Positions 2,095-51,800 of a stretch of DNA of 64,000 nt are shown in pieces. Positions within the stretch are counted from its first letter, which is position 1. Every line of letters starts with the position of its first letter. The stretch comes from an uncultured Cytophagia bacterium. GTDB taxonomy: Bacteria; Zhuqueibacterota; Zhuqueibacteria; Residuimicrobiales; Residuimicrobiaceae. Both the position numbers and the translations under genes were made by a program. Below the pieces are notes generated by a model. The model worked only from the letters and a program-made list of their open reading frames with translations, was not told the DNA's origin and made no database searches. Location of the stretch: contig CAZISM010000008.1 of NCBI GenBank assembly GCA_964541895.1, positions 13,920 through 77,919 on the forward strand, given 5' to 3'.

Positions 2095-2481
2095 GTGAAT
2101 GACACCTCTGGTTGGTAGCGTGACAACGGCAAGGATAAAAATAGGCAAAAATTGCATGACCTACAAGAAAATTTACTCGGCAGCTGGTCCGGTTACGTAT
2201 TACTCTCTGGCATGCAAGTTGCAAAAAACAGTATAGGCCGTGGCAGTGCGGCCGCTAGCCAGGCATCAGCAAGCACGCATCGTTTTTCATCTCAGAATCT
2301 GCATCTTTAATAGATTAATAATTAATGAAATAGCGCATAGAGAACAAAAAGGAAAAATTTACGGATTTTGGCAAGGAGGTGAATGAGCAAAATAGTCGAG
2401 TACGATTCTGTATTGTACTGAGCACTCGTTTCAAGTAGAGACAAACCATACTCCATTTTACTTAATGTTCGGGAGGAAGTG

Positions 2482-5843: not shown

Positions 5844-5870
5844 CGCATTTTGTGGAAGGGAAAGGGATTT

Positions 5871-6644
5871 ATGAAGAAATGGTTAATCATATTTCTGGTC
5901 GCATCGGCTCTGAGCGTGAGCAGGGCGGAATCGGTGCTGACCATGAGTGGCGGCAGCGGCGTGCCCGGGAGTCGGGACAACATTATCTCCGTTTCGTTGA
6001 CCAACCAGGAGCCGGTCAAAGGCATGCAGTTGTGGGTCGCCGATATTCCCAACGCCTTAAAGCCGGATTCGGTCTGGCTGACGAACCGCTGCAGCGGTTT
6101 TGATGTCTTTTATAACGACGTCGACGGGCTGCTGAACATCATCATTGTATCCACCAATCAGTTTCTCAGCCCGGATACCGGTGTGGTTCTCAAGATCAGC
6201 TATTCAGTCGTTACGGAGCAGAACGCAGCCAATCAGCTCGAGCTGCAGTTTGCCAAGCCGCCCAAGCTGGTCGGCCAGAACTATGTGGTGCTGCCGGTAC
6301 AGGCCATGAACAGCCAGTTTACCATTACCAGTGCGGCAGCGGTGGAGCAGACCACGAGCCAACCCGGCTCTTTTTCGCTTGGACAGAACTATCCAAATCC
6401 GTTCAATCCGACTACGCAGATCCCCTTTGAGATTGCAGCAGCCGGCTCGGTGCAACTGATCATTTATGACGTGCTGGGCCGCAGCGTGCGCACCCTGGTG
6501 CAGGGGCACTACACAGCCGGCGCTTACCGGATTACCTGGGACGGGCGTGACGACTCTGGAGAAGCGGTGGCGGGAGGCTTGTATCTGTGCCGGCTGGTCA
6601 GCAACGGCAGCAGTCAAACCAAACAGATGGTTTATATGAAATAA
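5871..6644 (+). CDS. secreted cohesin-like domain protein with T9SS C-terminal sorting domain
   Basis: ATG at 5871 after GGAAGGGAAAGGGA (track ORF starts at TTG 5850). Signal peptide MKKWLIIFLVASALSVSRAESV. The N-domain resembles the cohesin-like domain of the 2482 gene. C-terminus SLGQNYPNPFNPTTQIPFEI...LIIYDVLGRSVRTL...GGLYLCRL is a T9SS CTD. Confidence 0.7.
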   Translation: MKKWLIIFLVASALSVSRAESVLTMSGGSGVPGSRDNIISVSLTNQEPVKGMQLWVADIPNALKPDSVWLTNRCSGFDVFYNDVDGLLNIIIVSTNQFLSPDTGVVLKISYSVVTEQNAANQLELQFAKPPKLVGQNYVVLPVQAMNSQFTITSAAAVEQTTSQPGSFSLGQNYPNPFNPTTQIPFEIAAAGSVQLIIYDVLGRSVRTLVQGHYTAGAYRITWDGRDDSGEAVAGGLYLCRLVSNGSSQTKQMVYMK

Positions 6645-16136: not shown

Positions 16137-16693
16137 GACCGCATCCCATAGCCCGACGTTACGCCAAGGCTCTGTTTGAATTGGCGGAACAGCAAAAGAG
16201 CGTGGACCGAATCAAAAAAGAGGTGGACGCATTCGGTCAGATGCTGGCAAGTGACGGCCGATTACGCGCCTTTCTGCTTTCGCCCGAGGTGGATAAACAA
16301 TCCAAGACGCGCGTTCTGGAACAAGCGATCAGCGGCAAGGTGTCGTCTCTTTTTTACCATTTTCTGCTGGTCCTGCTGCAAAAGGGCCGGCAGCCGTTGT
16401 TCCCTGAAATCGTATATGAATGGGGCCGTCTCTACGACAAAAAGAACAACCGGATGCGGGCGACCCTGGTCTCTGCCGTTGCGCTCAGCGATGCGCAGGT
16501 GCAAAAGATACGAAAACAGCTGGCTGAATCCACCAAGGCGGATCTGGTGGTTGATAACGAGGTCGATCCGGCGATTCTGGGTGGCTTGGTCATTCGTATG
16601 GATGGCCGGGTGCTGGATGCGAGTCTGGCCCACCAGCTGGAGCGCCTGCGCAAAGAGTTAGAAAATGTTCAATTGGAATCCACATCGCATTAA
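16133..16693 (+). CDS. atpH: F0F1 ATP synthase subunit delta (OSCP)
   Basis: MRPHPIARRYAKALFELAEQQ N-terminus typical of delta. The apparent TTG start overlaps the atpF stop. Confidence 0.8.
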   Translation: MRPHPIARRYAKALFELAEQQKSVDRIKKEVDAFGQMLASDGRLRAFLLSPEVDKQSKTRVLEQAISGKVSSLFYHFLLVLLQKGRQPLFPEIVYEWGRLYDKKNNRMRATLVSAVALSDAQVQKIRKQLAESTKADLVVDNEVDPAILGGLVIRMDGRVLDASLAHQLERLRKELENVQLESTSH

Positions 16694-16705
16694 AACCTTA
16701 TATGA

Positions 16706-18238
<1,533 letters not shown>

Positions 18239-21126: not shown

Positions 21127-21158
21127 ACGGCGCCGAGTTTTCGCGCCGTTTTCGATTT
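21127..21158 (+). terminator. rho-independent terminator after atpC
   Basis: ACGGCGC-cgagttttc-GCGCCGT hairpin followed by TTTCGATTTTG. Confidence 0.55.
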
Positions 21159-21182: not shown

Positions 21183-24077
21183 ATGAATCATGGCCATGGT
21201 CAACCTGTGCTCAGCATCTGCATAAAGCGTCTCTGCTTACTGTTTCTGGCAATGGCAACGGTTTTTGTGTGGGGCGGAGCGCCTCTTCCGGTTCTGGGGC
21301 AGGGGCGCGACAGCCGTACCCCCACGGTTCCGTTTCAGGACCGCTTGCGCCACTACCTGGATGAAAACACCCAGGAGGTGGTGGAAGAGCTGGTCGCCAG
21401 AGAGCAGCAACTGCTGCAGCTGGTACAAAACATCCACCTGGAAGTCGCCAGCCGCGGCAAAGAGGGCGTGCACAAGGATCAGGCGGGATTTCGGCGACTG
21501 TACAGCCATCAGGACACCCTGATCCGTTCCTACCAGTATGAGCTGGAGCGGATGGTCCAGGTCTATGACGACCTGCAAAAGCTGAAGCGGGTGGCCGCCT
21601 ATCGCGGCAACCCCGGCCTGCTGTCGCAGGTGGAAGAGTCCACCTATGACGTGTTGCGCACTATGGACAACCGCTCCTTGTACAAAAAGGGCATCTACAC
21701 CTCTGCACGCGTCGGCGCCCTCATGGATGATTATACCAGCGAGCTTGATTCGCTGCTCACGATTTACGACGCTCTGGAACGGGCCCGGCTGCTGGCCGGC
21801 GCCCAGCAGAATCAGCAAGCGCTCGCAGATATTGACCGCCAGCAGGCGCAACTGTACCGCGTCCTGAGTTCGTGGAACAAGCTGGGACCGGTGCCGGATA
21901 CGACCTTTATGGATCTGCGCAGCGAGGCAGGCCACCTGAGCCGTGTCATGCAGCAGATCGATTCCCTGCAGGCCGGTGGCCGTGTCAGTGAGGCCGCCCG
22001 CCTGGAAGCGATTAAAGCCGCACTGCTGCAACGGGTCGACCGTTCGCTGATCGATCTGCTGAGCCAATCCGGCTATTCCCTTTCCGCTTACCCCACCGTG
22101 TCCGATTTCATCGATGTCTGGAAAAAAGAACGGCTGGTGGACATCAAGACCCGCCTGACAGAATACCTGGTCATGAATCGCACCCTGATCGACTCGGCGA
22201 CCCCGGAACAGCGCGACCGCATGCTCAATCGCGAACTCACGGCGCTGTCGGTGAATTTCGCCGAAGGCAAGTACCGGCTCACGGAGAATCAGATCAACGC
22301 CGTCCAGGAGCAGTATGGCCGCTATTATGCCTATATGACGCCGTTGACCTATTACCTCGCCGAATGCCGATACCACCGTCAGGCCCAGGAGGCCGCCCGG
22401 CCGCTCTATCTCTCCCTGGCGGCCGATACCAGCGCCGACCGCTTCCGGCCGGCCGCCCTGATCCGCCTGCTGCAGTACGAGCACACCTTTGATCTGCAGC
22501 GCGATTTTCTTGTCCATTATGACGCTCTCGGCAAGGATCGCCATGCCGATGCCGAGCAAAAACAGTATGCTCACTATCTGGCGGCTAACCGGTTTTTCGA
22601 CAAAGAGATGTGGAACGAGTGCCAGAGCGCCGTACACGCCGTACCGGCCGGGTCGCCCTATCGCATGCCGGCGCAGCTGCTCTCGGCCATCGCCTGGCTC
22701 AATCAGAACGATTTCGCTCAGGCGGTGCCGGTCCTGGAGTCTTTGATCGATGAGACCATTTACCCCTGGACCGATCTTCAGACCTCCTATATCCGCAACA
22801 CTGCTCTGTTGAAGCTGGGCATGGTGTACTATCAACGCGGAGAATTTCCCAGAGCCAATGATTTTTTCAACCGGGTATCGAAAGGATTTGCCGACCACGA
22901 TCAGGCGCTGATCGGCCAGGCCTGGGCCAGCCTCCGGCTCGGCGATTACAGCGCCTCTCTGTCGCGCACGCATCAGCTGCTCAACTCCTTTCTGGCATCC
23001 AATTTTACCTACGAAGCGCTGACGCTGGCCGGCCATTGCCGGCGGCTGATGAACCAGCCCCATGACGCTCTTAACGCCTATCGCTACGTCGTGCGCAGCC
23101 AGAACGAACGGGCGAAAAAGCAAGAGTACAATCAGGAGCGCGACCGTCTGAAGACGCAGAGCCGCGAACTCGATCGCCTGGAAAAAGAGTCCCTGGAACG
23201 GAGGCAGGTCGATCTCTATGCCGATGTGGAACGGATCAAAAATCAGATCAACGCCTATGTGGTCACCATCAACGAACGTACGGATACCGGCACACAGCTG
23301 CTGCAGGATTATTATGAAGAGCGCGTCGACCTCTTTGCCAAGCTGGATGAACTGCAGACCGTAATCGAAGTGGCCGAACGGGAAGAGCGGCCCGACATCG
23401 CCGACAAGGCGCGCAAACAGCTGGCCCGCTTGATCCGCGTGCTGCAGACCTATCGGTCTGATCAGAACGTGGTCAACACCGCTTTTCTCGTGGATTTCCC
23501 GCTGGCGGCCCGCGAAGCCAGCCAGGAATACAAGAGGAACAACCTCGCGTCAGTCTATCGCGATCTGGAAATGGAAAAGCGCCGGCTTGAGCGCAACGTG
23601 GAATTGGTGGCCGGTTTTGAACAGGCGGGTGAAAAATCCGTCGCCATGGCCTCCAGGAGCGATCTTGAAATCCTGCGCAGCGATCTGGATCACCTGCGCG
23701 ACCGCATGAGCGTGCTGCGCAAACGGGTGGTGGAGGAGCAGCCCGGGCCCGCTTCCTCGGACGCTGAAACGTGGAGCGATCTCTCCGGATTTGGCATGAC
23801 TGATATCATCTATTACGAACGGATGAAACGGCTGGCGACGATCGACAATTATGCGGTCCGGCTCAAGGGCATAGAAACCGTGCTTTCGGATCGGCGCCAT
23901 GACATCGAGGTCAAGCTGCAGATGTTTGAAGATGAAATCCGGGTGCTGCAGGACAACCTGCTGTCGCGCAAGATTCAACTGGATCAGATGGAACGGCGGA
24001 CCTATTTTGAAAAGTTCTATTTCGACGAGAAAGAACAAGAGGAATCCTGGGAACCACCGTCCACCACCAGGCCATAG
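21183..24077 (+). CDS. large secreted coiled-coil/TPR repeat protein (964 aa), function unknown
   Basis: RBS GAGGGC upstream. N-terminal hydrophobic signal/anchor RLCLLFLAMATVFVWGGAPLPVLGQG. Long heptad-rich segments and TPR-like repeats (e.g. LGMVYYQRGEFPRANDFFNRV). The complementary 628-aa antisense ORF lacks any such features. Confidence 0.6.
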   Translation: MNHGHGQPVLSICIKRLCLLFLAMATVFVWGGAPLPVLGQGRDSRTPTVPFQDRLRHYLDENTQEVVEELVAREQQLLQLVQNIHLEVASRGKEGVHKDQAGFRRLYSHQDTLIRSYQYELERMVQVYDDLQKLKRVAAYRGNPGLLSQVEESTYDVLRTMDNRSLYKKGIYTSARVGALMDDYTSELDSLLTIYDALERARLLAGAQQNQQALADIDRQQAQLYRVLSSWNKLGPVPDTTFMDLRSEAGHLSRVMQQIDSLQAGGRVSEAARLEAIKAALLQRVDRSLIDLLSQSGYSLSAYPTVSDFIDVWKKERLVDIKTRLTEYLVMNRTLIDSATPEQRDRMLNRELTALSVNFAEGKYRLTENQINAVQEQYGRYYAYMTPLTYYLAECRYHRQAQEAARPLYLSLAADTSADRFRPAALIRLLQYEHTFDLQRDFLVHYDALGKDRHADAEQKQYAHYLAANRFFDKEMWNECQSAVHAVPAGSPYRMPAQLLSAIAWLNQNDFAQAVPVLESLIDETIYPWTDLQTSYIRNTALLKLGMVYYQRGEFPRANDFFNRVSKGFADHDQALIGQAWASLRLGDYSASLSRTHQLLNSFLASNFTYEALTLAGHCRRLMNQPHDALNAYRYVVRSQNERAKKQEYNQERDRLKTQSRELDRLEKESLERRQVDLYADVERIKNQINAYVVTINERTDTGTQLLQDYYEERVDLFAKLDELQTVIEVAEREERPDIADKARKQLARLIRVLQTYRSDQNVVNTAFLVDFPLAAREASQEYKRNNLASVYRDLEMEKRRLERNVELVAGFEQAGEKSVAMASRSDLEILRSDLDHLRDRMSVLRKRVVEEQPGPASSDAETWSDLSGFGMTDIIYYERMKRLATIDNYAVRLKGIETVLSDRRHDIEVKLQMFEDEIRVLQDNLLSRKIQLDQMERRTYFEKFYFDEKEQEESWEPPSTTRP

Positions 24078-24087
24078 GTAACGGCGT

Positions 24088-27000
24088 ATGCTACGGGCTC
24101 GCACTAAACGGTATGAAAATCGCATGAAACTCTGCACCCTTTCCAGATCAGCAATCCTGTATGGCGTGTTGCTGACAGCGGCCGTGATCGAGCCGCTGCC
24201 GTTACAGGCGCAGGCCCCTTCATTGCCGGATTCGGCTCTGGCCTTTTTGGTACAGCGTGATTCGGTGCTCAATACGTTTTCCCTGGAAGAGCTGGAACGA
24301 TTTCGCAACTATTACACACGCGAAATCACCCGGCTGCAGAACGAACGGCTGGAGTTGCGTAAACGCGGTATCCGCGACGGCGAGCTGTTTCTGGCGCGAA
24401 AGCCGCAATCCAAAAACGGCGATAAAATCGTCATGCGGCTGGCCGAACTCTATTACGAGCAGGCGCAGGACGATTTTCAGATCGAAATGCAAGAGTACGA
24501 TCGCCTGTACGCGCTGTTTGAACGCGGGCAGCTGGCGCAGCCGCCCAAGGAACCGAGGAAGAACATCAACAAGGCGCTGGAGCTCTATGTCACCGTCGTG
24601 GAAAAATATGCCAACGGCGATCTGGTGGACGACGCCTTTTTCAACATCGGATTTCTCCTCGAAGAGGCCGGCCATGCCGACAGCGCCCGAACCTATTATG
24701 AAAAAGTGATCGCCGATTATCCCAAGAGCCCGCTGCGGCCGGACGCCCTGATGCGCATCGGCGAGTACTATTTCAATCCGCCCATGAACCTCGTGGAAAA
24801 GGCCATCGAGTATTTCGAACGCATCCTGCCCTTTATCGAAAGCCCGCGCTACAATGAGGCGCTCTACCGTCTGGGATGGTGCTATTATCGGATCAATAAT
24901 TATCCCAAAGCCATTTCCTTTTTTACGCTGCTGGCCGATGACGTGCAGAAAACCCGGCCCTACGATCCGATGCAAAAGTACACCAACCCCTCCCTCATGG
25001 ATGAATCGGTGGAGTACATCGGGCTCAGCTTTCTCGACTATGGCGGGCCGGACCGGGCGGCGGAATACCTGACCCGCATCGGCGGCCGCGCCTATGGCGT
25101 CAATGTACTGCGCCGGATCGGCGACGCCTATTTCAACGAAAAGGAAGATTATCCCAACGCCCTCAAGGCGTATGCGCTGTTGCTGCAGCTGTATCCCGAA
25201 GCGCCGGTGGCGCCGTCGGTGCAGAATCGCATCGTGCAATGCCACCGCCGCCTCGAGGACCAGACGAGTGCGTTTCTGGCGAGGGAAAAGTTATACAACA
25301 GCTACCGGGACGGCACCTCATGGTGGGATAAAAACAGCGACAAGGAAGCCCGCAAGCGGGCGCTGGTCTATGTGGAAAGCGCATTGCGCGACAACATCAC
25401 CGTGCTGCTCAATCGCGGCCAGGAAACCAATCAGCTCGAGTTCTTCAACCAGGCGGTGCTGCAGAGCCGGCGCTACCTGGCGACGTTCCCGACCGATTCC
25501 AGCGCCGCCCTGATTCACTGGAACATGGCGCTGACGCTGGACACCAAACTGAAACAGACCGCACAAGCTTTTGACGAGTATATCGAAATCAGCAATCTCT
25601 ATTGGGAGTCGCGCTATCAGCGCTTTGCCGCCGCCAACGCCGTGGCCATGGCCCGCGATGCGGCGGTCTCGGCCATTGCCGCGGCCGAGCAGGCCGCCAG
25701 GCGGTCGATCTCCCTGGCGGATCTGCAGAAGGAAACCAAAAATCCCCAGGGCGTCAAGTTTCGGGAAAAGATGAAGCTGGAGCCGAACGAACTGACCCTG
25801 GAAGAGACCCGCCTGGCGCAGGCGTATGACAACTATATAAAGCTCTTTCCCCACGACAAAGAAACGCCGATTTTTCTCGCCAATGCCGGCGCCCTCTATT
25901 ACCGACGCTATCAGTTCAAAGAGGCGTTGCGGTATTTCAATACTCTGCTGCGCCATTTCCCGGGCAGCGAGGAATTCGCCCAGGCGCGTTATGCCATCAT
26001 GGAGAGCTACTTCGGCAAGGCTGATTTCCGCAGTTCGGAAATTATCGCCCGCCGCATTCTCATCAGCGATGCGCCGGAAGAGGTGAAATCAAGAGCGCAG
26101 CGCCGGCTGGCAGAGTCCATCTATCTGTCTGCGGAAATGCTGGCGGAAGAGAACAAGCACCTCGATGCCGGCAACGAATATCGACGCGTAGTCCGCGAAG
26201 CACCCAACAGCGCCTTCGCCGACCTGGCTCTGTTCAACGCCGCGCTGGAATATGACAAGGCCGGTGAATTCAATCGCGCCATCGAAACCTACACCTCGTT
26301 GCTGGCCACACAGCCGCAATCGGCCTATGGGCTTGATGCCCAGAACAACCTGGCGTTTGATTATGCCGAGCTGCGCGATTATCGCAATGCCGCGCTCACC
26401 TATGAGCGGTTGGCCAATAATCAGCCCGATACCCTGAAAGCCCGGGACGCGCTTTTTAACGCCAGTCTCTATTTCAGCCGGGCCGAGGACTGGGAAAGCG
26501 CCATCAAAACAAACCGCACCTTTTTAAAACGATATCCCCGCGACGAACACGCCGATGAAGCGGCGTTTGACATCGCCGTTTTTTATCGCCGCCTCAATCA
26601 CTTTGACAAATCGGAAGAGGCCTTTCTGGATTTTGTCAAAGACTTTCCTGACTCGCCGCGGATCGTGGAAGCCTATTACCTTCGCGGCCGCCGCCTCTAC
26701 GAGACCGGCGACCGTAAAGCGGCCAGGCTGGAATTTCAACATGCGGTGGCTGCCAGTCAACAACTGGAGAAAAGGAATCTCGATCGCAACGATTTTTACG
26801 CCGCCGAATCCGAGTTTGATCTGGCCGGCCTTCTCTTTGACGAATCGGATCGGTTGCAGTTCAAGCTGCCCTTGGCGGATCTCAATCGCAACAAACAGCG
26901 TAAAAAAGAACTGTTGCTGGAGATCATTCACCACCTCAGCGCCTGCGCCGCCTATGGCACGCCGCGGGTGTACGAAGCGACCTACCAGGTGGGATTGGCG

Positions 27001-28608
27001 TACCAGAAATTCGCCGATACGTGGGCCGGTCAGGATCTGCCGGACATGGAGGCAAATCGCCGGATCGTAGCGCAGAAAGAGATCAACGATGCGGCGGTGG
27101 TGCTCTCCGAGCACGCCGCCGGCGTCTACCGCCAGGCCATCAAGGGCCTGCAGCGGCTGCGCGACAGCTACTACCAGAATTTGACCATGAGCATCGTGGA
27201 CTCGCTTCAGCGTCGTACGACGGTGCAGCAGGATACCATCCTGCGCATCGCCGACCGCTGGGTGGAGCGATCCAGAGAACGGCTGACCGAAGTGTATTAC
27301 AGTATGGGCGATCTCCGTTTTGAATCCGCGCGCATGGTGCAGGAGGCGCCGGTGCCACGGGGACTGAACGATCTGCAGCAACTGGTGTATCGTAAACAAC
27401 TGCTGCAGATCGGTACGGTGCCGCTGCTGAAGCAGGCGTTTGAAGAGCACAGCCGAAACGTGACCGTCGCGGATTCGATGAACTATGCTTCGACCTGGGT
27501 GGAGCTGTCCAGACAAAAGCTCGTCACCATCCACACCGCTGTGCCGGCCAGCTATACCAAACTGGCCCTGGACGGCCTGACGACGATCGCGGATAAATTT
27601 ATCGGCTATTCCAATCTCATTTACAGCGGTCGCTCCCTCGACGACCTGCTCGACGATCTGGCCGGCCACGGCCGGGATTTGGCCAACATGGTCGACTTTT
27701 GTCATGCCATCATGGACAGCGCCATCGTCGGTTACCATCATTCGATCGCTTCGGCCGGTCAGTGGCGGGCATCGCCGGAATCCATTGCAGCGGTGCAGGA
27801 TTCCCTCATGGAGCGCATACTGGATTTTTCGGCGCTCTGCGATTCGCTGGCTATGAACGCCAAAGGCAGAGCCAATATGGCGCGGCAGCGCTTCCTGGCC
27901 ACTCAGGATCCGGTGCTGGAGGAAGGGCTCTTTACCTTTGAGAGCAACTATTTCAGCTTGCGAAAGGCGAACAAAGAGGTGCTGGAGCGAGGTTATAACC
28001 TCGGCCGGGAGCTGGCGACCAATAGTCGCCACGACCAGCTGGTGCTGCTGCGGCTGGTGGCCCTGGATCCCGATACCTATGCCGCTCAGGCCGGCTTGAC
28101 CATCAGCGAAATGACGGTGGCGACCGATACAACCTGGCGGGCGGCTTCCACCTATTTTGAAGGTTGGACCGGAATCGGTTTCGATGCCTCCAGCTGGGCC
28201 ACAGCCGGCAAGGCCGACAGCAGTATCGCCGGCGCGGTCTGGCTCTACGAACCGTCGGCTGACACCACGGCTATCGCTGTCGTTCCGGTGACGCGGCTCT
28301 ATATGCGGCTCTATTTTAGCGTCCCCGGTTTGCCGGTCTCCTGCCGGCTGAACTACCAGGCGCCCCATCATGTCAGTTTTTACCTTAACGGGGAATCGAT
28401 CAAGCGAGTCAAAGCCGGCGAGCCGCAGGAGCCTGTTGATATGACCGATGTCATCAGCAGCGGCGGCAATCTGTGGGCCATGGAGGTGGTGCAGGCCGAA
28501 GGCTCAGCGCCGGGAATAGCCACTCAGATCGTGGTGCGCTATGTGCCGGGATGGGAGGAAAAAGTAAAGAGTCTAAATGTTCAGGCTGCCAGCGGCCGGA
28601 ATCCGTAG
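24088..28608 (+). CDS. very large secreted TPR repeat protein (about 1495-1506 aa) with YbgF/CpoB-like TPRs and a non-TPR beta-rich C-terminal domain
   Basis: Alternative start at 24124 (MKLCTLSRSAILYGVLLTAAV signal peptide). More than 15 TPR-like units (YPKSPLRPDALMRIGEYYFN, YPEAPVAPSVQNRIVQCH, FPDSPRIVEAYYLRGRRLYE...). The C-terminal ~170 aa (about nt 28100-28608) is a non-repeat domain. Confidence 0.65.
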   Translation: MLRARTKRYENRMKLCTLSRSAILYGVLLTAAVIEPLPLQAQAPSLPDSALAFLVQRDSVLNTFSLEELERFRNYYTREITRLQNERLELRKRGIRDGELFLARKPQSKNGDKIVMRLAELYYEQAQDDFQIEMQEYDRLYALFERGQLAQPPKEPRKNINKALELYVTVVEKYANGDLVDDAFFNIGFLLEEAGHADSARTYYEKVIADYPKSPLRPDALMRIGEYYFNPPMNLVEKAIEYFERILPFIESPRYNEALYRLGWCYYRINNYPKAISFFTLLADDVQKTRPYDPMQKYTNPSLMDESVEYIGLSFLDYGGPDRAAEYLTRIGGRAYGVNVLRRIGDAYFNEKEDYPNALKAYALLLQLYPEAPVAPSVQNRIVQCHRRLEDQTSAFLAREKLYNSYRDGTSWWDKNSDKEARKRALVYVESALRDNITVLLNRGQETNQLEFFNQAVLQSRRYLATFPTDSSAALIHWNMALTLDTKLKQTAQAFDEYIEISNLYWESRYQRFAAANAVAMARDAAVSAIAAAEQAARRSISLADLQKETKNPQGVKFREKMKLEPNELTLEETRLAQAYDNYIKLFPHDKETPIFLANAGALYYRRYQFKEALRYFNTLLRHFPGSEEFAQARYAIMESYFGKADFRSSEIIARRILISDAPEEVKSRAQRRLAESIYLSAEMLAEENKHLDAGNEYRRVVREAPNSAFADLALFNAALEYDKAGEFNRAIETYTSLLATQPQSAYGLDAQNNLAFDYAELRDYRNAALTYERLANNQPDTLKARDALFNASLYFSRAEDWESAIKTNRTFLKRYPRDEHADEAAFDIAVFYRRLNHFDKSEEAFLDFVKDFPDSPRIVEAYYLRGRRLYETGDRKAARLEFQHAVAASQQLEKRNLDRNDFYAAESEFDLAGLLFDESDRLQFKLPLADLNRNKQRKKELLLEIIHHLSACAAYGTPRVYEATYQVGLAYQKFADTWAGQDLPDMEANRRIVAQKEINDAAVVLSEHAAGVYRQAIKGLQRLRDSYYQNLTMSIVDSLQRRTTVQQDTILRIADRWVERSRERLTEVYYSMGDLRFESARMVQEAPVPRGLNDLQQLVYRKQLLQIGTVPLLKQAFEEHSRNVTVADSMNYASTWVELSRQKLVTIHTAVPASYTKLALDGLTTIADKFIGYSNLIYSGRSLDDLLDDLAGHGRDLANMVDFCHAIMDSAIVGYHHSIASAGQWRASPESIAAVQDSLMERILDFSALCDSLAMNAKGRANMARQRFLATQDPVLEEGLFTFESNYFSLRKANKEVLERGYNLGRELATNSRHDQLVLLRLVALDPDTYAAQAGLTISEMTVATDTTWRAASTYFEGWTGIGFDASSWATAGKADSSIAGAVWLYEPSADTTAIAVVPVTRLYMRLYFSVPGLPVSCRLNYQAPHHVSFYLNGESIKRVKAGEPQEPVDMTDVISSGGNLWAMEVVQAEGSAPGIATQIVVRYVPGWEEKVKSLNVQAASGRNP

Positions 28609-28641
28609 GGCAAGGCAGGTCAGGCGTTCAGCCAGGAGGTC

Positions 28642-28992
28642 GTGGTGCAAAAAAGATGGATGGTTATCTGTGTGGTCGCCGTTTGCGGGGTTCTGGGCGC
28701 CCAGGAAAAGGCGCCGCCGGCGGATTCAACGCATACCGCGGCCGCAGACTCGAGTGCCATCAAAGAGGTCTCGCTTGAAGATATCCACATTGATGCCGTG
28801 GTGGAAAAACCGGCGGTAACTCTGATTCCACGGCGGATTCCGCCGGAAATGGGCGATGCGCCGGAGATGAACCGTTCCTTTGATCGCGAGCTTAAACAGC
28901 GGCCGTCGTTCCTGAACGAGCTGGGCCGGGAAATGGAAAGCGGTCAGCGCCTGCAGACGGATAAAAAAAATCTTGCGAAAGAAAAGAAATAA
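28642..28992 (+). CDS. small secreted protein (about 116 aa), unknown function
   Basis: AGGAGG at 28634-28639 then a GTG start (28642/28645). N-terminus KRWMVICVVAVCGVLGAQE looks like a signal peptide, with a charged C-terminal tail. Lies between the giant TPR gene and tolQ. Confidence 0.4.
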   Translation: MVQKRWMVICVVAVCGVLGAQEKAPPADSTHTAAADSSAIKEVSLEDIHIDAVVEKPAVTLIPRRIPPEMGDAPEMNRSFDRELKQRPSFLNELGREMESGQRLQTDKKNLAKEKK

Positions 28993-29061
28993 AGATATAT
29001 TTATTTTTATTAACTGTTTTGTGCCACGAGGTCGTTGAAGGTATAGTCGTTGGGAGGTTCC

Positions 29062-29712
29062 ATGGCTGAACTGATTCGTAACTTTAGTCCGGATGTGGCC
29101 GGATATTTCTATATGTGGGCGTTGCTGGTCCCCATGATTTTCGCCGTCGCCATTGCCGTCGAGCGCGGGATCTATATTTTGCACCGCAGCGACATCAACG
29201 CGGAAAAATTCATGGCGGAAATCCGCAAACTGGTCACCGCAGGCAAAATGGAAGATGCGGTGAACCTGTGTGATCGCGCCAAGGACCGCGCCCTCCCCAA
29301 AGTGGTGGCCAGTGGCCTGCGCGCGGTGTTGAACAAGCAGCAGGTGGATTTTCGCACCATCCAGAACTCGGTGGACGAGGGCATGCTGGAGATCATTCCC
29401 AAACTGCAGGCGCGGACCAATTATCTGGCCATGTTGGCGAACATCGCGACGCTGCTGGGACTGCTGGGCACGATCTATGGTCTGATCATCGCCTTCCGTT
29501 CCATATCGGCGCCTGGTATCGATGCCTCGGAAAAAGCCCGTTTGCTGGCCGCCGGCATTTCTACGGCCATGAACACCACCCTGGTGGGTTTGTTCATCGC
29601 CATCCCAACCATATTTATGTATACCTTTCTAACCAATCGCACCAACAAGATCATCGACGAGATCGATGAACATATGGTAAAGCTCATTAACCTGCTGACC
29701 GGGAATCGTTAA
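29062..29712 (+). CDS. MotA/TolQ/ExbB family proton channel
   Basis: ATG at 29062 5 nt after GGGAGG (track start at 29050 is TTG). Three TM helices with the conserved C-terminal ...AAGISTAMNTTLVGLFIAIP... pattern. Confidence 0.85.
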   Translation: MAELIRNFSPDVAGYFYMWALLVPMIFAVAIAVERGIYILHRSDINAEKFMAEIRKLVTAGKMEDAVNLCDRAKDRALPKVVASGLRAVLNKQQVDFRTIQNSVDEGMLEIIPKLQARTNYLAMLANIATLLGLLGTIYGLIIAFRSISAPGIDASEKARLLAAGISTAMNTTLVGLFIAIPTIFMYTFLTNRTNKIIDEIDEHMVKLINLLTGNR

Positions 29713-29714
29713 GC

Positions 29715-30251
29715 ATGGCGTATAAACCGTCCAAACGGCGTCACCTGGAAGTCGAACAGATTGAACTTAATCTGTTTCCGGTGATGAACATGATGGTGGT
29801 GCTGATCCCGCTGTTGCTTTCCACCACCCAGTTTGTCAAATATGGTATTATCGAGCTCAACCTGCCGCGGGCGGCAGGGGGGCCGGTCAGCCAGACCACT
29901 CTGGCCAAAGAGAGCCAACTCAGTCTGGATTTGACCGTATCGATCACCAAGAGCGGTTTTTATATTTCCAGCTCGCAGGCGGTTTTGCGCGACCCTGCGA
30001 GCGGCGGGCCGACCATCGCGAAATTGGCGGATGACCGCTACGACTTTCAGGCGTTGAACCAAAAATTGTACGAGCTCAAACAGCGCATTGTCAAATCGTC
30101 GCTGGACACACGTCGGATCATCATTCAGGCGGAAATGAACATCGATTATCAGACTCTGGTGGACACGATGGATGCCGCGCGCAGCATCAAGATCGATAAT
30201 GTCGGGTACGAGCTTTTTCCTGAAGTGGTGATCAGCGCCGGCATTGTCTAG
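29715..30251 (+). CDS. biopolymer transporter ExbD/TolR (copy 1)
   Basis: KRRHLEVEQIELNLFPVMNMMVVLIPLLL N-terminal TM with the conserved Asp-region pattern, periplasmic domain follows. Start is 3 nt after the TolQ stop. Confidence 0.8.
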   Translation: MAYKPSKRRHLEVEQIELNLFPVMNMMVVLIPLLLSTTQFVKYGIIELNLPRAAGGPVSQTTLAKESQLSLDLTVSITKSGFYISSSQAVLRDPASGGPTIAKLADDRYDFQALNQKLYELKQRIVKSSLDTRRIIIQAEMNIDYQTLVDTMDAARSIKIDNVGYELFPEVVISAGIV

Positions 30252-30364
30252 CCGGATCGCGCCGTCCATTCAGTGATCGTTGGACTTTTCTCCATGTTTC
30301 GCCGACGTCGGCACAGGTGGTGCGGGCGAAACCATGGATCAAGACTTTAATCGGGTAATAGCGT

Positions 30365-30862
30365 ATGGCGTTTATCCCTTCACGAATCAAGCGCCACAAT
30401 ACCGGTGCGGCACCCAAAGTGGGTTTAAATTTGACCTCCATGATGGACATGTTTACCATCATTCTGGTGTTTTTGATCAAAACCTTCAGCACCGAAGGAC
30501 TGCTGTTGCATCCTTCGCAGGATTTGACGTTGCCCAAGTCCACGTCGGACAAGAGCCCGGAGGTGGCTCTGGATGTAACGGTGTCCCGTGAATGGATCAT
30601 GGTGAATGAAAAACCGGTCGAAAAACTGAGCAATGTGGTGAGCAGCAACGATTTGTTGATACCTCGCCTTTATGATGCGTTACAGAACTACTCCAAAGAA
30701 GCAAAACGCATGGAAGAGCAATATGGCATAAAGTTCACCGGCAAGGTAACCATTCAGGGTGATCAGAAATTGCCTTTCAGCACTTTGCTCAAGGTGATGG
30801 CCACCTGCGGGCGTTCGGAATATCCGAACATGCGCCTGGTGGTGTATCAGCGGGGAGGATAG
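30365..30862 (+). CDS. biopolymer transporter ExbD/TolR (copy 2)
   Basis: GLNLTSMMDMFTIILVFLI TM with the conserved Asp, ExbD-length (165 aa). Confidence 0.75.
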   Translation: MAFIPSRIKRHNTGAAPKVGLNLTSMMDMFTIILVFLIKTFSTEGLLLHPSQDLTLPKSTSDKSPEVALDVTVSREWIMVNEKPVEKLSNVVSSNDLLIPRLYDALQNYSKEAKRMEEQYGIKFTGKVTIQGDQKLPFSTLLKVMATCGRSEYPNMRLVVYQRGG

Positions 30863-31024
30863 CGGGGCTGCGCCGGCTTTGACGGAAGCCGAACGGCCAT
30901 GGGATGAAGGGTATATCGCGGTGATCCGGAGGGAGCCGCATCATAATCAAAGGAGCGGTATACGGTCGCAACACTGCCACAAGAGTATTACAGAAAACCA
31001 TTTGACCAGCTTGAGCGCGAGTTT

Positions 31025-32122
31025 ATGCTCATTCTGCTGGCTTCGTTCGTCCTGCATTTCAGCATTGTAGTCTTTTTTTTACTGAATCCGCCGGCGACGT
31101 CGGTGCCCGAATCCGCCATTCGCCAGATTCAGCAGCGGTATGCCAATCTGGTCCTGGATCAGGAAGAACAATCGGTTCGAATCGCCAATCAGTTGATCGA
31201 TAATATGGGCGGCAAAGAAACCCGCAAGCGCATTGCGGCGCCGGCGCGGCGCCGTGGCGCCGCGTCGCCGCAGGCAGGAGCCCGTCCGGCCGTTGACGAG
31301 CCCGCCCCAGCCGGCGAAGAGGTTTCAAGCCGTGAATCGACAGAGCGCCCAGCCCCGGCCTCCACTCTGGTCTTGCCGGCCGGCCCCACGAGCGGCGCTG
31401 TGCAGCAGGCGGAACAACAGATAGCCGGACAGGGTTTGTTGGGCATCCTGGCCAGCAACAGTCCGCAGGCCGGCCATGATCAGACCGTGCAGGATGTTCT
31501 GGGTCGCGGTGGCAAGGTCGGCCAGACCTCTGATCAGGTTTTTCAGAACATCGACCGACTGGCCAGTTCCGGTGCTTCTACTCGCGCACCGGCCAAGGGA
31601 GGCAGCGGATCAGCCTCGGCGGATCCGTTGACGACCGCGCGCGGCAGCCGCACGACCAGCAGCGGCGCCCGTATCGACCAGGTGGTCTCCGATCTGCCGG
31701 GCCACGGCGGTTCCGGAGGCGGCGGTGTAGGCCAGGTGGTGACTCGTAAAGAAACCATTGAAAAGGCCGGATTGTCGCCGCTGACCGAAGAGGGCGATGA
31801 AATTAAATCCGGCGGCTCACTCACCGGTGCCCGTGATGTGGCGCAGGTGTCTGCCATTGTCTACGGCCACAGCCAGGCGATTCAGTACTGCTATGAACGG
31901 GAATTGAAGCGCAATCCGGATTTGAAAGGGAAAGTGGTGGTTCGTTTTACCATTTTGCCCAACGGCACGGTGGCCAACCCCGTAATAATCTCTTCGACGT
32001 TGCACAATGAGGATGTAGAGCGTTGCCTGCTGTCCCGCATCAGCCGCTGGGACGATTTCGGCGCCATTGATGAGCGTCTGGGCAACGCTACCTTTCGGCA
32101 GGTATACACCTTTGGTTTTTAA
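31025..32122 (+). CDS. TonB family energy transducer with a long Ala/Pro/Gly/Ser-rich linker
   Basis: N-terminal TM helix (LILLASFVLHFSIVVFFLL), about 180 aa of low-complexity linker, and a C-terminal GKVVVRFTILPNGTVANPVIISS...WDDF TonB_C-like fold pattern. No alternative in-frame start exists upstream (stop at 30944-30946). Confidence 0.7.
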   Translation: MLILLASFVLHFSIVVFFLLNPPATSVPESAIRQIQQRYANLVLDQEEQSVRIANQLIDNMGGKETRKRIAAPARRRGAASPQAGARPAVDEPAPAGEEVSSRESTERPAPASTLVLPAGPTSGAVQQAEQQIAGQGLLGILASNSPQAGHDQTVQDVLGRGGKVGQTSDQVFQNIDRLASSGASTRAPAKGGSGSASADPLTTARGSRTTSSGARIDQVVSDLPGHGGSGGGGVGQVVTRKETIEKAGLSPLTEEGDEIKSGGSLTGARDVAQVSAIVYGHSQAIQYCYERELKRNPDLKGKVVVRFTILPNGTVANPVIISSTLHNEDVERCLLSRISRWDDFGAIDERLGNATFRQVYTFGF

Positions 32123-32237: not shown

Positions 32238-32266
32238 TGTCAGGTGGCCCCACCTGACTTTTTATT
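32238..32266 (+). terminator. rho-independent terminator after the TonB-like gene
   Basis: GTCAGGTGG-cc-CCACCTGAC hairpin followed by TTTTTATTT. Confidence 0.55.
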
Positions 32267-48802: not shown

Positions 48803-51800
48803 ATGACAACTCGGAATCCACATACGGTTGACAGCAGCGTGACGCCGCGAAAGAAAAGGCGTCTGTGGCGATGGCTGGCCTGGTTCGTGATCGCGACGGC
48901 GCTCTTGCTCCTGGTCGTAACGCTGGTCGCACGCCACTATTTGCGGCCGGATCGGTTGCGCCGCCTGGCGATCGAGACGGTCGAGAAAAGCATGCCGCGC
49001 AAAATGCACATCGCCGATTTCGATTACCATCTGCTCCACGGCCTGGTCCTGAAGGGGGTGAGCATCCATGCCGCCGACAGCCTGCAGGACCTCTTTCCGC
49101 TCCGTCATCTTTCTTTCAGAGAGATGCGTCTGCAGTACAGCCTGCGCGACCTGCTGCAGCGGCGATTCATCGTCAACGAGATCAGCCTGCTGGAGCCGGA
49201 GCTGGAGCTCTTTGTCGATATGTCCACTCCCAGCGCGATCGATCTGGAGGCTCTGCTGGCCACCAGCCTGCCGATCGACTTTGATGTCAAAAAAATTCGC
49301 CTGCAGGATGCGAAATTCAAGATCGTGCTGGCGGATTCACAATACAATCAATCCTATCGTGTCGGCCAGATGAGCATCCTGGTCGATGAACTCCATCTTC
49401 CCCAAAAGGGCTGGTCGGCCAACGATTCGCTGCTGCACGGCACTCTGCGCGTTCTCTGCGAACATACCTCCCTTCATGTGGAATACCTGGACATTCCCAG
49501 CAGCGCCCGCATGCAGCTGGACTCGGATCTTAATGTCGACAGTCGAATCGATATCCATTCCTTCCGCCGCATCAGGCTGAACACGGCGTTAAAGCTTGGT
49601 AATCTGCACCTGCTCTATGAACCTCAAACCGTTACCCTGCCGACGACCTTTAGCCTTGGCCTGGATGCGGACATAAACGCGAGAGAGGGCAACGTGGCTG
49701 TGCAAACGCGCCTGGCGGTGGATGACCGTGAATGGCTGGCGGCGACGGTCGCGGTGGACTCTCTTTTTCAGCAGCCGAAATATCGTGTGCATGTCAGCCA
49801 CGGCGAGATACCGCTGGCGCAGCTGTTACAGATGACCCGGCACGTTCTGCCGGATTCCCTCATCCCGGTCACGATTACCGAGAGTGCGCAGCCTGTGTTT
49901 CGCTGCGACGGCATGGTGCTGGAGGGGCGGCTGCCGTCTCCATCCTCGGACGGCAAAATGGATTTCAGAGTGAACGGACGTCTGAGCCACACCGATTTTT
50001 TCGATCCGGGCCGCTCCTGGCTGGCGCGCGGCGTCGGCTTTTCTGTCCAGGCCGAAGGACACGGCAACGGCAAAAGCTTGCACACGCTCACCCTGCAGGC
50101 CAATGCCGATCTGGACAGTCTGCACTATGCCCTGAATGATACCATGGCGGTTTTCTCCGGCCATGGACAGCTGTACTTTTATTCACGACTGAACGAGCGC
50201 TTGTTGCCCGAAAAAACCAGACTATCCTTTACCTTGGCCAACTGCATGGGCGGAGCCATGGAAGGCGAAATGGACTTGACCGGCGAGTTGGCCCTGGCCC
50301 GTTTGGCGGGCAAGGGTCGTTTTAGCTGGCTGGATATTCCGCTGCACCATCTGGCCGCCACGCCGGTGCAGGGCAACCTCTCCCTGCGTTCCGATTTCAG
50401 CCTGTCCGGATTGGACCACCTGGCGGCGACGGTCCAGCTGTCCACCACACCGCTGCTGGTGGCCACGGAGGAACGTCCGCTCTCGGTGTCCGGCTTGAGA
50501 TTCATCGGCCGTGTCAGAGCCGGGGTGGATACGACGTTTTCCCGAATGCATCTTGATTCCATCCGGATCAACCTGAACGACATCGCGCGGATGCACGGCC
50601 GTGCCGATGTGGATCTCGCCGCTGGAAATTTCACCGTGGACCTGGACGAAGCCCTGCTGGAACACAGCGCTTTGCTGAACTGGCTTCCCGGCAGCCTGAT
50701 AGAACAGTACGGTGAACTGGCCGTCACCGGTCAAACACGGTTGCAGGTGCATGGCAAAGGCTCCATGACGAACCGGCCCTTGCAGTATTATCTCACCGGC
50801 GCGCTGACAACACGGAATACCAGCTTTTATGATCCTGACCATTTTTTGGCGATCGGCGGACTGGGCGTTCAAGCCGCCTGGCAGGTCGATGATCGCTCCG
50901 GTTTAGCCGCGCAATTGCAGGTGACCGTTGACAGCCTGACCCTGTCCGGTGGCACCAATATCAGCTACCTGAACAATCACATAGCGTTGCAGTTATCCAG
51001 TCCGGATTTTGCCGGCTATACGATCAGCAAGGGCGAGCTGGCAATCCCTGATGTGCGATCCACGGCTACGTTCACCGCACACTGGCAGGACAGCACCGTC
51101 ACGGCGCAGCTGGCCATCCACCAGGCCATTCCGGATAGTTTTGTCATCCGCGATCTGGTCATGCGCGGGGCGACGGATGTGGTGCTGGGTGTACACGCGG
51201 ATCCTGCGCTGGTGAATGTCCTCGCCGAGATCCACAGCCGCAACTGGTCTCTGTCCATGCCGGGCCTGGCGGATGTGCGCGGTTTGCAGGCTGATCTGTT
51301 TGTTCAGCAGCTCTATGACGTGCGCAAAGGGCAGTTCCTCGGCAGCGACGAATATCTCATCGCCACGCCGGCGCATGGCGTGCTCGATTATTTTTTGTAT
51401 CGGGATTTTTTCCGCCAGCGGCAGCCCCACCTGTCGCGCATCACCATCGAGCAGGTGGAGATTATGAGCTATGCGCTGCAAAACATCCGCCTGGAGTTGT
51501 TGGCCGATCAGGGACGCATCGAAGTTCCGGCCCTTGAAGCCACCCTGCTGGGCGGGAACGTTACCGGACGTTTGAGCGTCGATCTGGCCGGCGGTGATCT
51601 GGCCGGCGCCAGCTATCGTATGAGCGGACATTTTGCCAACATCAATTCGTACCTGTTAACCCGGTACGCCGCCATTCCCAGGGACGACGGCGTGGTCAAC
51701 GGCAATCTTGAATTTCGTGGTTCCGGGCTGAACCCGGAAGAACAGATGGTGCTGGACGGCCATTTTTATATCACTCAAATCGGTCCTACGGCTGCGGCCA

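Follow-up and report, generated by a model that had tools for sequence, protein, structure and literature searches.

The seven co-directional genes at positions 21,183 to 32,122 (+ strand) of the 64-kb stretch of DNA analysed here (the window) are best read as the Agl-Glt core complex of candidate phylum KSB1, a Tol/Ton-like envelope machine, and we put the probability of this reading at roughly 70%. Judged by sequence comparison, their products are homologues of GltC, GltD, GltF/CglF, the TolQ-like protein AglR, two TolR-like stator subunits and GltG. The core complex, described in 2011 by Luciano et al. (PMC3169522; also PMC3858216), first came to notice as the kernel from which the gliding (Agl-Glt) and spore-coat (Agl-Nfs) machineries of Myxococcus xanthus evolved (PMC3169522, PMC3858216). 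As published it comprises the Group B genes gltC, gltD, gltE, gltG, aglR, aglQ and aglS together with one extra small gene, and stand-alone clusters occur in Fibrobacter succinogenes (Fisuc_1892-1897), Geobacter, Methylibium and several Gammaproteobacteria (PMC3169522); no function has been demonstrated for any of them (PMC3169522, PMC3858216). That the seven-gene unit has been known since 2011 makes the preliminary description of this DNA less novel, and equally correct: the core complex is an already established type of system, present also in non-gliding bacteria.

Organisation and conservation of the locus

A check of the sequence and its open reading frames (ORFs) reproduced the arrangement in the preliminary description, namely seven + strand genes (g1 to g7) in a given order and at given coordinates between two hairpins. 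The upstream boundary is a terminator-like hairpin (21,127–21,158, + strand) that comes after the ATP synthase epsilon gene and was read directly as a 7-bp stem (ACGGCGC/GCGCCGT) and a 9-nt loop followed by TTTTCGATTTT; the terminator scan, whose loop limit is 8 nt, missed this hairpin. The block ends, upstream of aspS, in an intrinsic-terminator-like hairpin that the scan did return (32,239–32,258, + strand), with an 8-bp stem containing five G-C pairs, a 4-nt loop and a T-run tail (TTTTTATTTA). Terminator-like sites inside the block are weak and not commoner than expected (18 against 13.6 ± 4.1 in shuffled sequences), and the gaps between successive genes measure 10, 33, 57, 2, 113 and about 99–162 nt.

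The block is not a product of chance, as it turns up again in 72 species-level genomes. Loss of synteny in relatives had been put forward as grounds for rejecting the original reading, and the comparison did not refute it: order and strand are kept in 49 of the 50 loci long enough to judge (48 complete by tblastn and one completed by eye) in KSB1/Calditrichota-type genomes, and every truncated locus is truncated at a contig end. Among the related loci, ATP synthase genes lie upstream in 21 and aspS downstream in 34. In one locus (L001), ParAB, M23 peptidase and bactofilin genes are found close to the core block.

Periplasmic components

The sequences used for comparison came from Glt clusters of MAGs and of Corallococcus, while Fibrobacter, Geobacter and Methylibium were likened by published gene order and protein sizes. 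The reference clusters are of Glt type according to named models (GltE 120–150, GltG 157–198, GltC 42–74 and CglF 30 bits), and the diagonal of the profile-profile matrix obtained with hhalign gave E values of 2.6e-21 for GltC, 8.3e-98 for GltD, 1.4e-5 for GltF and 1.6e-38 for GltG. For GltC and GltF the assignment comes from comparing profiles against three references apiece, and g1 and g3 fall short of every curated family cutoff.

Gene g1 (21,183–24,077, + strand) codes for a GltC-like periplasmic protein of 964 aa with a hydrophobic, signal-like N-terminal segment, helical arms at about residues 50–360 and 650–950, and a central GltC-like TPR core (residues 362–651, nt 22,266–23,135). Its top NCBIfam match was gliding_GltC (1.9e-7), where its 30 bits fall well short of the equivalog cutoff, 450, and the hhalign match to the GltC-like proteins from three Glt clusters (99.4%, 283 columns) was stronger than those to GltD (E 1.5e-9) and GltE (E 2.7e-6). 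It had been described as a secreted coiled-coil/TPR protein; the ORF and the TPR core stand, while the coiled coil drew little support from a single-sequence AF2 model that was all-helical and unreliable (pLDDT 43.5). The protein is longer than the GltC-like proteins of published core complexes (626–746 aa).

Gene g2 (24,088–28,608, + strand) codes for a GltD-like periplasmic scaffold of 1506 aa, whose signal peptide ends in LQAQA, before PS. The GltD-homologous core (residues ~70–1025, nt 24,295–27,162) contains the YbgF/CpoB-like TPRs already ascribed to this protein (TIGR02795 136 bits, in five to seven stretches; CpoB 61 bits). It aligned with GltD-like proteins of Glt-type clusters at 26–27% identity over 985–1029 collinear columns in BLASTP (E 4e-77 to 5e-77) and matched them in hhalign (100%, 924 columns), and an exhaustive profile search matched a Myxococcota protein of 1190 aa in a single stretch (E 3.6e-120). 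Within KSB1 the protein is kept over its full length at 37–68% identity. Residues 1026–1339 form a KSB1-type helical extension, and the beta-rich C-terminal domain noted earlier proved real, being modelled by AF2 as a beta-sandwich (residues ~1340–1487, nt 28,105–28,548, + strand; pLDDT 87.5). This domain is predicted to be a jelly roll of the galactose-binding-domain-like or carbohydrate-binding-module type, that is, a lectin-type fold, and carries no attached catalytic domain; that it binds glycans is a guess, since jelly rolls of the GH2 N-terminal type do not always bind sugars in their own right. The C-terminal extension of about 480 aa is a KSB1-specific trait, and it is on account of the helical extension and the beta-sandwich that g2 exceeds the 941–1292 aa of GltD-like proteins in published core complexes.

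The secreted 116-aa product of g3 (28,642–28,992, + strand, GTG start) was assigned as GltF/CglF-like by position and hhalign; no Pfam or NCBIfam model matched it. It is found between g2 and the TolQ gene in essentially all related loci, with the conserved core IxIEAVIEKPxVxxIPKR…RSFxxELK. Glt clusters encode proteins of 86–91 aa in the corresponding position, to which hhalign matched g3 (80.3%, 43 columns, against at most 1.8% for GltC, GltD, GltE or GltG), and one of these proteins matches NCBIfam gliding_CglF (4e-7) over its full length.

Motor and transducer

The channel and the two ExbD/TolR paralogues of the preliminary description were recovered by Pfam. Gene g4 (29,050–29,712, + strand; 220 aa from a TTG, with an ATG also at 29,062) codes for a TolQ/ExbB/AglR-like proton-channel subunit (MotA_ExbB, 3e-26). 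The first TolR/ExbD paralogue, g5 (29,715–30,251, + strand, 178 aa; ExbD, 6e-15), lies in the AglQ position and the second, g6 (30,365–30,862, + strand, 165 aa; ExbD, 1.2e-13), in the AglS position. In g5 the protonatable Asp of TolR/ExbD is replaced by Asn25 (nt 29,787–29,789), its family having Asn in 54 and Asp in 6 of 60 members, whereas Asp28 of g6 (nt 30,446–30,448) is conserved in 59 of 59. Compared with the Glt-type cluster L078 of another phylum, which has the order GltC-GltD-GltE-small-TolQ-TolR-TolR-GltG, g4 is 49% identical to TolQ over 200 aa, g5 42% identical to the first ExbD, which likewise has Asn (PIMNLVL), and g6 33% identical to the second (E 1e-22).

Gene g7 (30,962–32,122, + strand) codes for a GltG-like, TonB-type transducer. 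The TonB-like nature given to it before has become more specific, and its start is probably not the first canonical ATG (31,025–32,122, 365 aa) but an upstream ACG at 30,962, after a Shine-Dalgarno sequence AAGGAG (30,950–30,955), giving 386 aa. A short cytoplasmic motif (LPxEYxRKPFxxLxREF) precedes a transmembrane helix bearing SxxxH; then come a linker rich in Gly, Ala, Ser and Pro and a C-terminal domain of AgmX/PglI type (nt 31,835–32,098) in which two Cys are conserved; the SxxxH motif and both Cys are common to GltG-like proteins. The domain scored 82.5 bits against NF033768 (1.7e-23, cutoff 40), and gliding_GltG matched the C-terminus with 65 bits; the NCBIfam equivalog cutoffs for GltG, as for GltC, were far from reached. 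GltG-like proteins matched it in hhalign (100%, 323 columns) and in BLASTP at 28% identity over 348 columns (E 7e-20). No FHA domain is present in g7.

Comparison with known systems and alternative readings

The block shares with stand-alone core complexes the order GltC-like, GltD-like, small gene, TolQ, TolR, TolR, GltG-like, the protein classes, with motor and GltG-like parts of similar size (212/164/308 aa in Fibrobacter, 220/178/165/365–386 aa here), and a GltG-like protein without an FHA domain. It has no GltE gene, which belongs to the published definition, and neither has the Fibrobacter cluster an assigned one; the KSB1/Calditrichota lineage lies outside the 2011 survey. With the M. 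xanthus Agl-Glt and Agl-Nfs systems the block has in common homologous GltC, GltD, GltF/CglF and GltG, the one-TolQ-plus-two-TolR motor, the SxxxH anchor and the AgmX/PglI domain with its two Cys. The evidence bears out the earlier view of an envelope machine powered by the proton-motive force, with the giant TPR proteins as its periplasmic parts, whose logic is nearer to Tol-Pal/CpoB and to the one-TolQ-plus-two-TolR Agl motors than to siderophore uptake through TonB. In contrast to M. xanthus Agl-Glt, where the motor genes occupy a separate locus, those of the block adjoin the glt-like genes. The KSB1-specific features are the lack of GltE, the lack of FHA on the GltG-like protein, the GltD-like extension, the Asn-bearing TolR and the probable ACG start.

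The strongest competitor, which we nevertheless regard as unlikely, is a functional analogue of Tol-Pal serving house-keeping outer-membrane attachment and constriction at division in KSB1. On this reading, the 1506-aa multi-YbgF/CpoB-like protein would coordinate peptidoglycan synthesis, with g7 in the part of TolA. In its favour are a single locus conserved phylum-wide amid house-keeping genes (ATP synthase, aspS), a setting that suits a Tol-Pal-like role equally well; the strong YbgF/CpoB-type repeats of g2; the best named NCBIfam matches, TolQ in the case of g4 and TolR in that of g5 and g6; the TolA/TonB-like SxxxH anchor of g7; and the lack of separate Tol-Pal genes in the window. Tol-Pal with CpoB (YbgF) likewise combines a TolQ-TolR stator powered by protons, a TonB/TolA-like C-terminal domain on an anchored transducer, YbgF-type TPR modules in the periplasm and a genomic setting among house-keeping genes. 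However, all Tol equivalog cutoffs were missed widely (TolQ 66.9 against 221, TolR 33.5 against 127), and TolB and Pal are absent from the block and from the core of the 72 related loci. The block has two distinct TolR paralogues, a many-repeat TPR protein with a lectin-type domain, an AgmX/PglI-type transducer domain and specific collinear homology to GltC, GltD, GltF and GltG. The Tol-Pal proposal is about function and can be reconciled with core-complex ancestry.

That KSB1 cells glide on a working motor, with outer-membrane and cytoplasmic parts encoded elsewhere, appears highly improbable. Every periplasmic and inner-membrane part of the Glt/Agl core is present, and two related clusters (L077, L078) adjoin MglA/MglB-like genes. 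Against this, g7 is without the FHA domain that joins GltG to the cytoplasmic platform, the GltG and GltC cutoffs are missed, and no GltE, GltA/B/H outer-membrane barrels, GltK, CglB, GltI, GltJ, AglZ or MglA/B-like domains, nor any other outer-membrane partner, were found in the 64-kb window; moreover, core genes alone are insufficient for motility and are present in non-gliders (Luciano et al., PMC3169522).

Least probable is the already disfavoured ordinary TonB-ExbB-ExbD system for nutrient uptake, with the TPR genes adjacent by chance: the MotA_ExbB and ExbD matches, weak g7 hits to TonB_C (21.3, cutoff 24.6) and tonB_Cterm (26.7 bits) and several homologues annotated 'energy transducer TonB' speak for it, but both TonB models fall below cutoff with AgmX/PglI well above, the equivalog models for ExbB and ExbD give very low scores (g4 ExbB 40.6 against 206), one TolR has lost its Asp, unlike homodimeric ExbD, the conservation of the four motor/transducer genes is strictly tied to that of the three Glt-like genes, and the domain scan returned neither a TonB-dependent receptor nor TolB or Pal, whether from the block, as had been stated, or from the ~37 other ORFs of the window that it covered.

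Proposed mechanism

[quoted passage not shown] The stator would use proton flow to set in motion the GltG-like protein, bound to it through the SxxxH helix. The long flexible linker of that protein would span the peptidoglycan, its disulfide-type TonB-like C-terminal domain would dock on the GltD-like scaffold at the helical N-terminal part, and the GltF-like peptide and GltC-like protein may complete the periplasmic assembly beneath the outer membrane. Because g7 has no FHA domain and the GltD-like protein carries a carbohydrate-binding-type beta-sandwich, our best guess is that the machine is energised to move, tether or organise a polymer mechanically, either a glycan of the envelope or one associated with the outer membrane; in our view its task is neither focal-adhesion gliding nor siderophore import. 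[quoted passage not shown]

Results and discussion

Gene block and reference clusters

The block at 21183-32122 had been presented in a preliminary description as seven co-directional genes, and all seven open reading frames (ORFs; here g1 to g7) were confirmed, in place and on the + strand, with gaps of 10, 33, 57, 2, 113 and 162 nt between consecutive genes. Pfam models identified a MotA_ExbB domain in g4, an ExbD domain in both g5 and g6, many TPR families in g2 and a few TPRs in g1; no Pfam match was found for g3. A 186-aa ORF on the - strand (29709-30269) covers the whole of g5 and is slightly longer, and longest-ORF calling would choose the wrong strand here; the + strand is favoured because of the ExbD Pfam match and its conservation. 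The terminators that had been placed on both sides of the block were also recovered. On the 3' side a hairpin at 32239-32258 was picked up by a terminator scan, and on the 5' side a hairpin followed by a T-run (21127-21158) was read in the sequence; its stem has 7 bp, and because its loop of 9 nt exceeds the 8-nt limit of the scan, it is absent from the scan output. Terminator-like and promoter-like sites inside the block were weak consensus matches, near the shuffled expectation. Rfam and tRNA scans of the whole window gave no match. An F-type ATP synthase operon lies immediately upstream of the block, with DNA ligase and ParA genes farther upstream, and genes for aspS, PhoH, a 7TM-HD protein, YbeY, TrkAH, Lon, Hsp20 and nucleotidyl transferases are found downstream; the remainder of the window consists of house-keeping genes.

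Matches of the block proteins to NF033768 and to the GltG and GltC models gave the first pointer to the gliding system of Myxococcus. The core complex of this machine was defined by Luciano et al. 2011 (PMC3169522) as gltC, gltD, gltE, gltG, aglR, aglQ and aglS, and was reported, together with one further small gene, as a single cluster in Geobacter, Methylibium, Fibrobacter and several Gammaproteobacteria. Table S3 of that paper lists GltC, GltD, GltE, one gene, TolQ, TolR, TolR and GltG for Geobacter and Methylibium, and for Fibrobacter succinogenes a 746-aa GltC-like protein, a 1292-aa GltD-like protein, a 212-aa TolQ, one gene, a 164-aa TolR and a 308-aa TonB-family GltG-like protein.

Three reference clusters were compared with the block: L076, from a Myxococcota MAG (822-aa TPR, 1186-aa, 496-aa, 86-aa and 467-aa proteins); L077, from Corallococcus sp. 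M34 (MglB-like protein, Arf-like GTPase, then 260, 803, 1114, 492, 91 and 448 aa); and L078, from a MAG labelled Pseudomonadota (MglB-like protein, Arf-like GTPase, 260-aa, 641-aa TPR, 1119-aa, 547-aa TPR and 90-aa proteins, MotA_ExbB, ExbD, ExbD and a 456-aa protein). Named models mark all three as Glt-type (GltE 120-150, GltG 157-198, AgmX/PglI tail 96-105 and GltC 42-74 bits), and the model for CglF (as GltF was formerly called) was matched over its full length at 30 bits. Directly 5' of the GltC-like gene, L077 (5614-7575) and L078 (5567-7565) carry the genes for an MglB-like (Robl_LC7) protein, an Arf/MglA-like GTPase and the conserved 260-aa protein; L076 has a 245-aa gene at that position, and nothing comparable stands in front of the cluster in KSB1, the candidate-phylum lineage of the window's organism.

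Homology of the block proteins to the core complex

Family alignments from KSB1 were compared, profile against profile, with reference alignments of three members each. The matrix of g1, g2, g3 and g7 against GltC, GltD, GltF-like and GltG showed a clean diagonal, with generic TPR similarity or noise elsewhere.

The 1506-aa g2 product was assigned as the GltD-like large periplasmic TPR scaffold, with an hhalign probability of 100% (E 8.3e-98) and BLASTP identities of 26-27% to GltD-like proteins over 985-1029 collinear columns (E 4e-77 to 5e-77). Word-indexed homology searches with g2 and g7, a method without reach into other phyla, returned only KSB1-type proteins; the close homologues of g2 and g7 had source names such as candidate division KSB1, Calditrichaeota and Candidatus Zhuqueibacterota, which places the window in a KSB1-type member of the FCB group. 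When residues 50-1249 of the g2 family were used as the profile in an exhaustive search, 2037 proteins matched at E<=1e-30; apart from the KSB1 family these included many proteins of 1100-2400 aa matching the entire profile, such as a 1190-aa Myxococcota protein aligned in a single stretch (E 3.6e-120), and a search around them led to members from Corallococcus, Vitiosangium, Pyxidicoccus, Hyalangium and Archangium. Against NCBIfam at E<=10, g2 matched no GltD or GltE model and g3 matched no model at all; a GltD model probably does not exist in NCBIfam, since the GltD-like proteins of Myxococcota match none either. The protein begins with a cleavable-looking signal peptide, followed by the GltD-homologous core (residues ~70-1025, rich in YbgF-type repeats) and a helical extension. 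The beta-rich C-terminal domain noted earlier corresponds to a beta-sandwich at residues ~1340-1487 (AF2 pLDDT 87.5) of carbohydrate-binding or lectin type, with no catalytic domain joined to it, and a 1614-aa relative from outside KSB1 has a similar C-terminal domain. We considered the C-terminal extension as a fused GltE and rejected this, because GltE matches were of the generic TPR kind and confined to residues 704-891. A GltE-like TPR protein was found nowhere in the block: there is no gene between g2 and g3, and the similarity of GltE-like profiles to g2 (5e-5) and g1 (2.7e-6) in hhalign is due to generic TPRs only.

Just upstream of g2, the 964-aa g1 product was matched to GltC-like proteins by hhalign (99.4%, E 2.6e-21), clearly ahead of GltD or GltE. 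GltC was also its best NCBIfam match, at just 30 bits, and pairwise BLASTP similarity was weak (E 4.5e-6). A hydrophobic N-terminus precedes a GltC-like TPR core in the middle of the protein (residues 362-651), flanked by what appear to be two long charged helical arms in an AF2 model that was built from the single sequence without an alignment, is unreliable (pLDDT 43.5) and served for secondary structure only. In a related locus from a Calditrichota MAG (L003, 4077-6996) the GltC-like gene was called as two ORFs of 330 and 654 aa with a 38-nt overlap, which a frameshift, a misassembly or a genuine split of the gene might explain.

The small g3 protein (116 aa), previously described as secreted, does have a signal-like N-terminus. 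Its conserved core, IEAVIEKPxVxxIPKR…RSFxxELK, aligns with (V/I)EGRIQKPQAFxxLQR…SF of GltF/CglF-like proteins (hhalign 80.3%, E 1.4e-5), so by its sequence this 'extra' gene resembles a GltF/CglF that has diverged. If it is one, the periplasmic C-D-F-G module may predate earlier estimates.

The last gene, g7, encodes a GltG-type transducer in which a long linker lies between the only transmembrane helix and an AgmX/PglI domain. Its C-terminus scored 82.5 bits against NF033768 (AgmX/PglI C-terminal domain; cutoff 40), and the second-best match, to the full-length NCBIfam GltG model, reached 65 bits, far below the equivalog cutoff of that model. Comparison with GltG-like proteins gave 100% and E 1.6e-38 over 323 columns in hhalign, and 28% identity over 348 columns (E 7e-20) in BLASTP. 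Scores for TonB C-terminal models fell just under their cutoffs (Pfam TonB_C 21.3 vs 24.6; TIGR01352, tonB_Cterm, 26.7 vs 27.1). Like the myxobacterial GltG-like proteins, g7 has a juxtamembrane D-x-x-F, an SxxxH transmembrane motif, which is of the TonB/TolA kind, and a C-terminal domain with two invariant Cys; whereas those proteins carry a cytoplasmic FHA region of ~150 aa, g7 has none and only ~25 cytoplasmic residues. The lack of FHA would set the periplasmic machine apart from the cytoplasmic focal-adhesion platform. The reading frame is open 5' of the first ATG (31025), where it encodes TLPQEYYRKPFDQLEREF and contains no ATG, GTG or TTG, and the cytoplasmic motif encoded there (LPxEYxRKPFxxLxREF) is conserved in relatives. 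A Shine-Dalgarno sequence, AAGGAG (30950-30955), is followed six bases on by an ACG at 30962. The same layout was seen in four related loci (L004, L005, L013 and L008), and ATT/ATC-type candidates in two more (L010 and L011). It is thus plausible, from these sequence features, that g7 starts at the non-canonical ACG 30962 to give a 386-aa product, in which case the gap between g6 and g7 would be ~99 nt instead of 162 nt.

The TolQ/ExbB-like gene g4 and the two distinct TolR/ExbD-like genes g5 and g6 together form a set like that of AglR, AglQ and AglS. BLASTP against L078 gave 49% identity over 200 residues for TolQ (E 4.5e-44), 42% over 182 for the first ExbD (E 3.5e-40) and 33% for the second (E 1e-22). 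Of 60 family members of the first TolR, 54 have Asn at the position of the protonatable Asp, as does L078; the second TolR retains the Asp throughout (59/59). By analogy, this asymmetry fits a TolR heterodimer within a TolQ pentamer in which one subunit would accept protons. AglR5-AglQ-AglS has been modelled as a heterodimer within a pentamer (PMC11761067), and the M. xanthus literature reports the proton-binding site of AglQ to be essential; our literature search found no statement on retention of the Asp in M. xanthus AglS. Loss of the Asp from one TolR, which the block shares with a distant Glt cluster, may place a constraint on heterodimeric stator models.

The gene order gltC-gltD-(gltE)-small gene-aglR-aglQ-aglS-gltG is shared by the block with L078 and with Table S3 of PMC3169522. 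Judged by sequence, the block is a member of the core-complex family, five of the six defining features that were tested being found in it. It differs from published core complexes, for which GltE is listed, in having no GltE (none is listed for the published Fibrobacter cluster either), and also in its larger GltC- and GltD-like proteins, its carbohydrate-binding-type domain, its lineage and its house-keeping context. The stand-alone core has been known since 2011 and our literature search found no description of the cluster in KSB1 or Caldithrix.

Conservation among relatives

One genome per species was scanned with the g2 family, and the resulting loci were searched by tblastn with the seven window proteins. 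The scan gave 72 loci, all in KSB1/Calditrichota-type MAGs, of which 48 had all seven genes in order on one strand; incomplete ones stop at contig ends. Gene order was kept in 49 of the 50 informative loci, so that the synteny on which the preliminary description had made its grouping depend holds in related genomes. Two seeming gaps were sensitivity failures in which the small gene was missed, its motif being legible in one of them (L067). The sole true exception (L057, a Caldithrix sp. MAG, 16474-17968) is intact to the second TolR and then has a short-chain dehydrogenase, not a GltG-like gene. The next gene downstream is aspS in 34 loci; in 21, the cluster is preceded by the gene for ATP synthase epsilon. 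The core thus appears fixed among house-keeping genes across this whole uncultured lineage. Several MAG records with a KSB1-type locus (L032, L072, L004, L039 and L019) carry titles that name Actinomycetota, Cytophagia, Deferribacteres or Bacteroidetes, which probably reflects mis-binning or coarse automatic naming, not genuine occurrence in such phyla.

Possible function

By analogy with the stators of Tol/Exb/Mot systems and with the model published for Agl-Glt, protons passing through TolQ5-TolR1/TolR2 would power conformational work in the GltG-like protein. The flexible linker of the latter would cross the periplasm, allowing its C-terminal domain to engage the GltD-like scaffold, and the GltF-like and GltC-like partners would round off a sub-outer-membrane assembly. 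The predicted carbohydrate-binding-type domain on the scaffold points to glycan as the substrate. Because of this lectin-type domain, the lack of FHA and the lack of cytoplasmic or outer-membrane Glt parts nearby, we consider it most likely that a glycan of the envelope, or a polymer linked to the outer membrane, is what the KSB1 machine handles or anchors.

The main functional rival, which keeps some probability, is a Tol-Pal-like house-keeping role. The motor and scaffold do recall Tol-Pal components, but they fall far short of the equivalog cutoffs (TolQ 66.9 vs 221, TolR 33.5 vs 127, CpoB 61 vs 383), and a scan of the ~37 other ORFs of the window revealed no TolB or Pal domain, nor any TonB-dependent receptor, MglA or MglB domain. 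A true gliding motor, to which the homology with the Agl-Glt proteins would lend itself, is less likely, given that g7 lacks FHA and that no GltA/B/H/K, GltI or GltJ was found in the block or the scanned window ORFs. TonB-dependent uptake is also less likely despite the near-cutoff TonB scores of g7, as ExbB (40.6 vs 206) and ExbD (28.5 vs 123) equivalogs were not matched and the window has no gene for a TonB-dependent receptor.

Envelope glycan handling can be extended to a broader proposal, to which we give a probability of roughly one in five. The Agl-Glt core of KSB1/Calditrichota would serve as a house-keeping envelope machine throughout the phylum rather than as an accessory one, forming a third Tol/Ton branch beside Tol-Pal and TonB. 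Its heterodimeric TolR stator with one Asp, together with a GltG arm, would move or tension a GltD-GltC-GltF shaft whose lectin-type end grips a glycan of the cell envelope, be it peptidoglycan, capsule or a polymer linked to LPS. Gliding and spore-coat assembly would have arisen later from this ancestral activity, which might also take the place of Tol-Pal in KSB1/Calditrichota. Fibrobacter, Cellvibrio and Geobacter are tractable carriers of the core complex in which such predictions are testable.

Other features of the window

A 1083-aa ORF (48803-52054, +) with weak DUF748 and AsmA-family matches shares with the block an envelope-related neighbourhood and may, by sequence, encode an AsmA-like inter-membrane lipid-transport protein. 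In a 2799-aa ORF (52788-61187, +), PD40/WD40-like beta-propeller repeats at the N-terminus occur together with a long array of TPR_12 and, at the C-terminus, a domain like the CHAT protease (Pfam CHAT, 5e-73). FlgD_ig-type C-terminal domains often label a protein as cargo for type IX secretion among FCB bacteria, and two ORFs (2479-3918 and 5850-6644, +) were found to end in Ig-like domains of this type, one of them with an additional cohesin-like domain.
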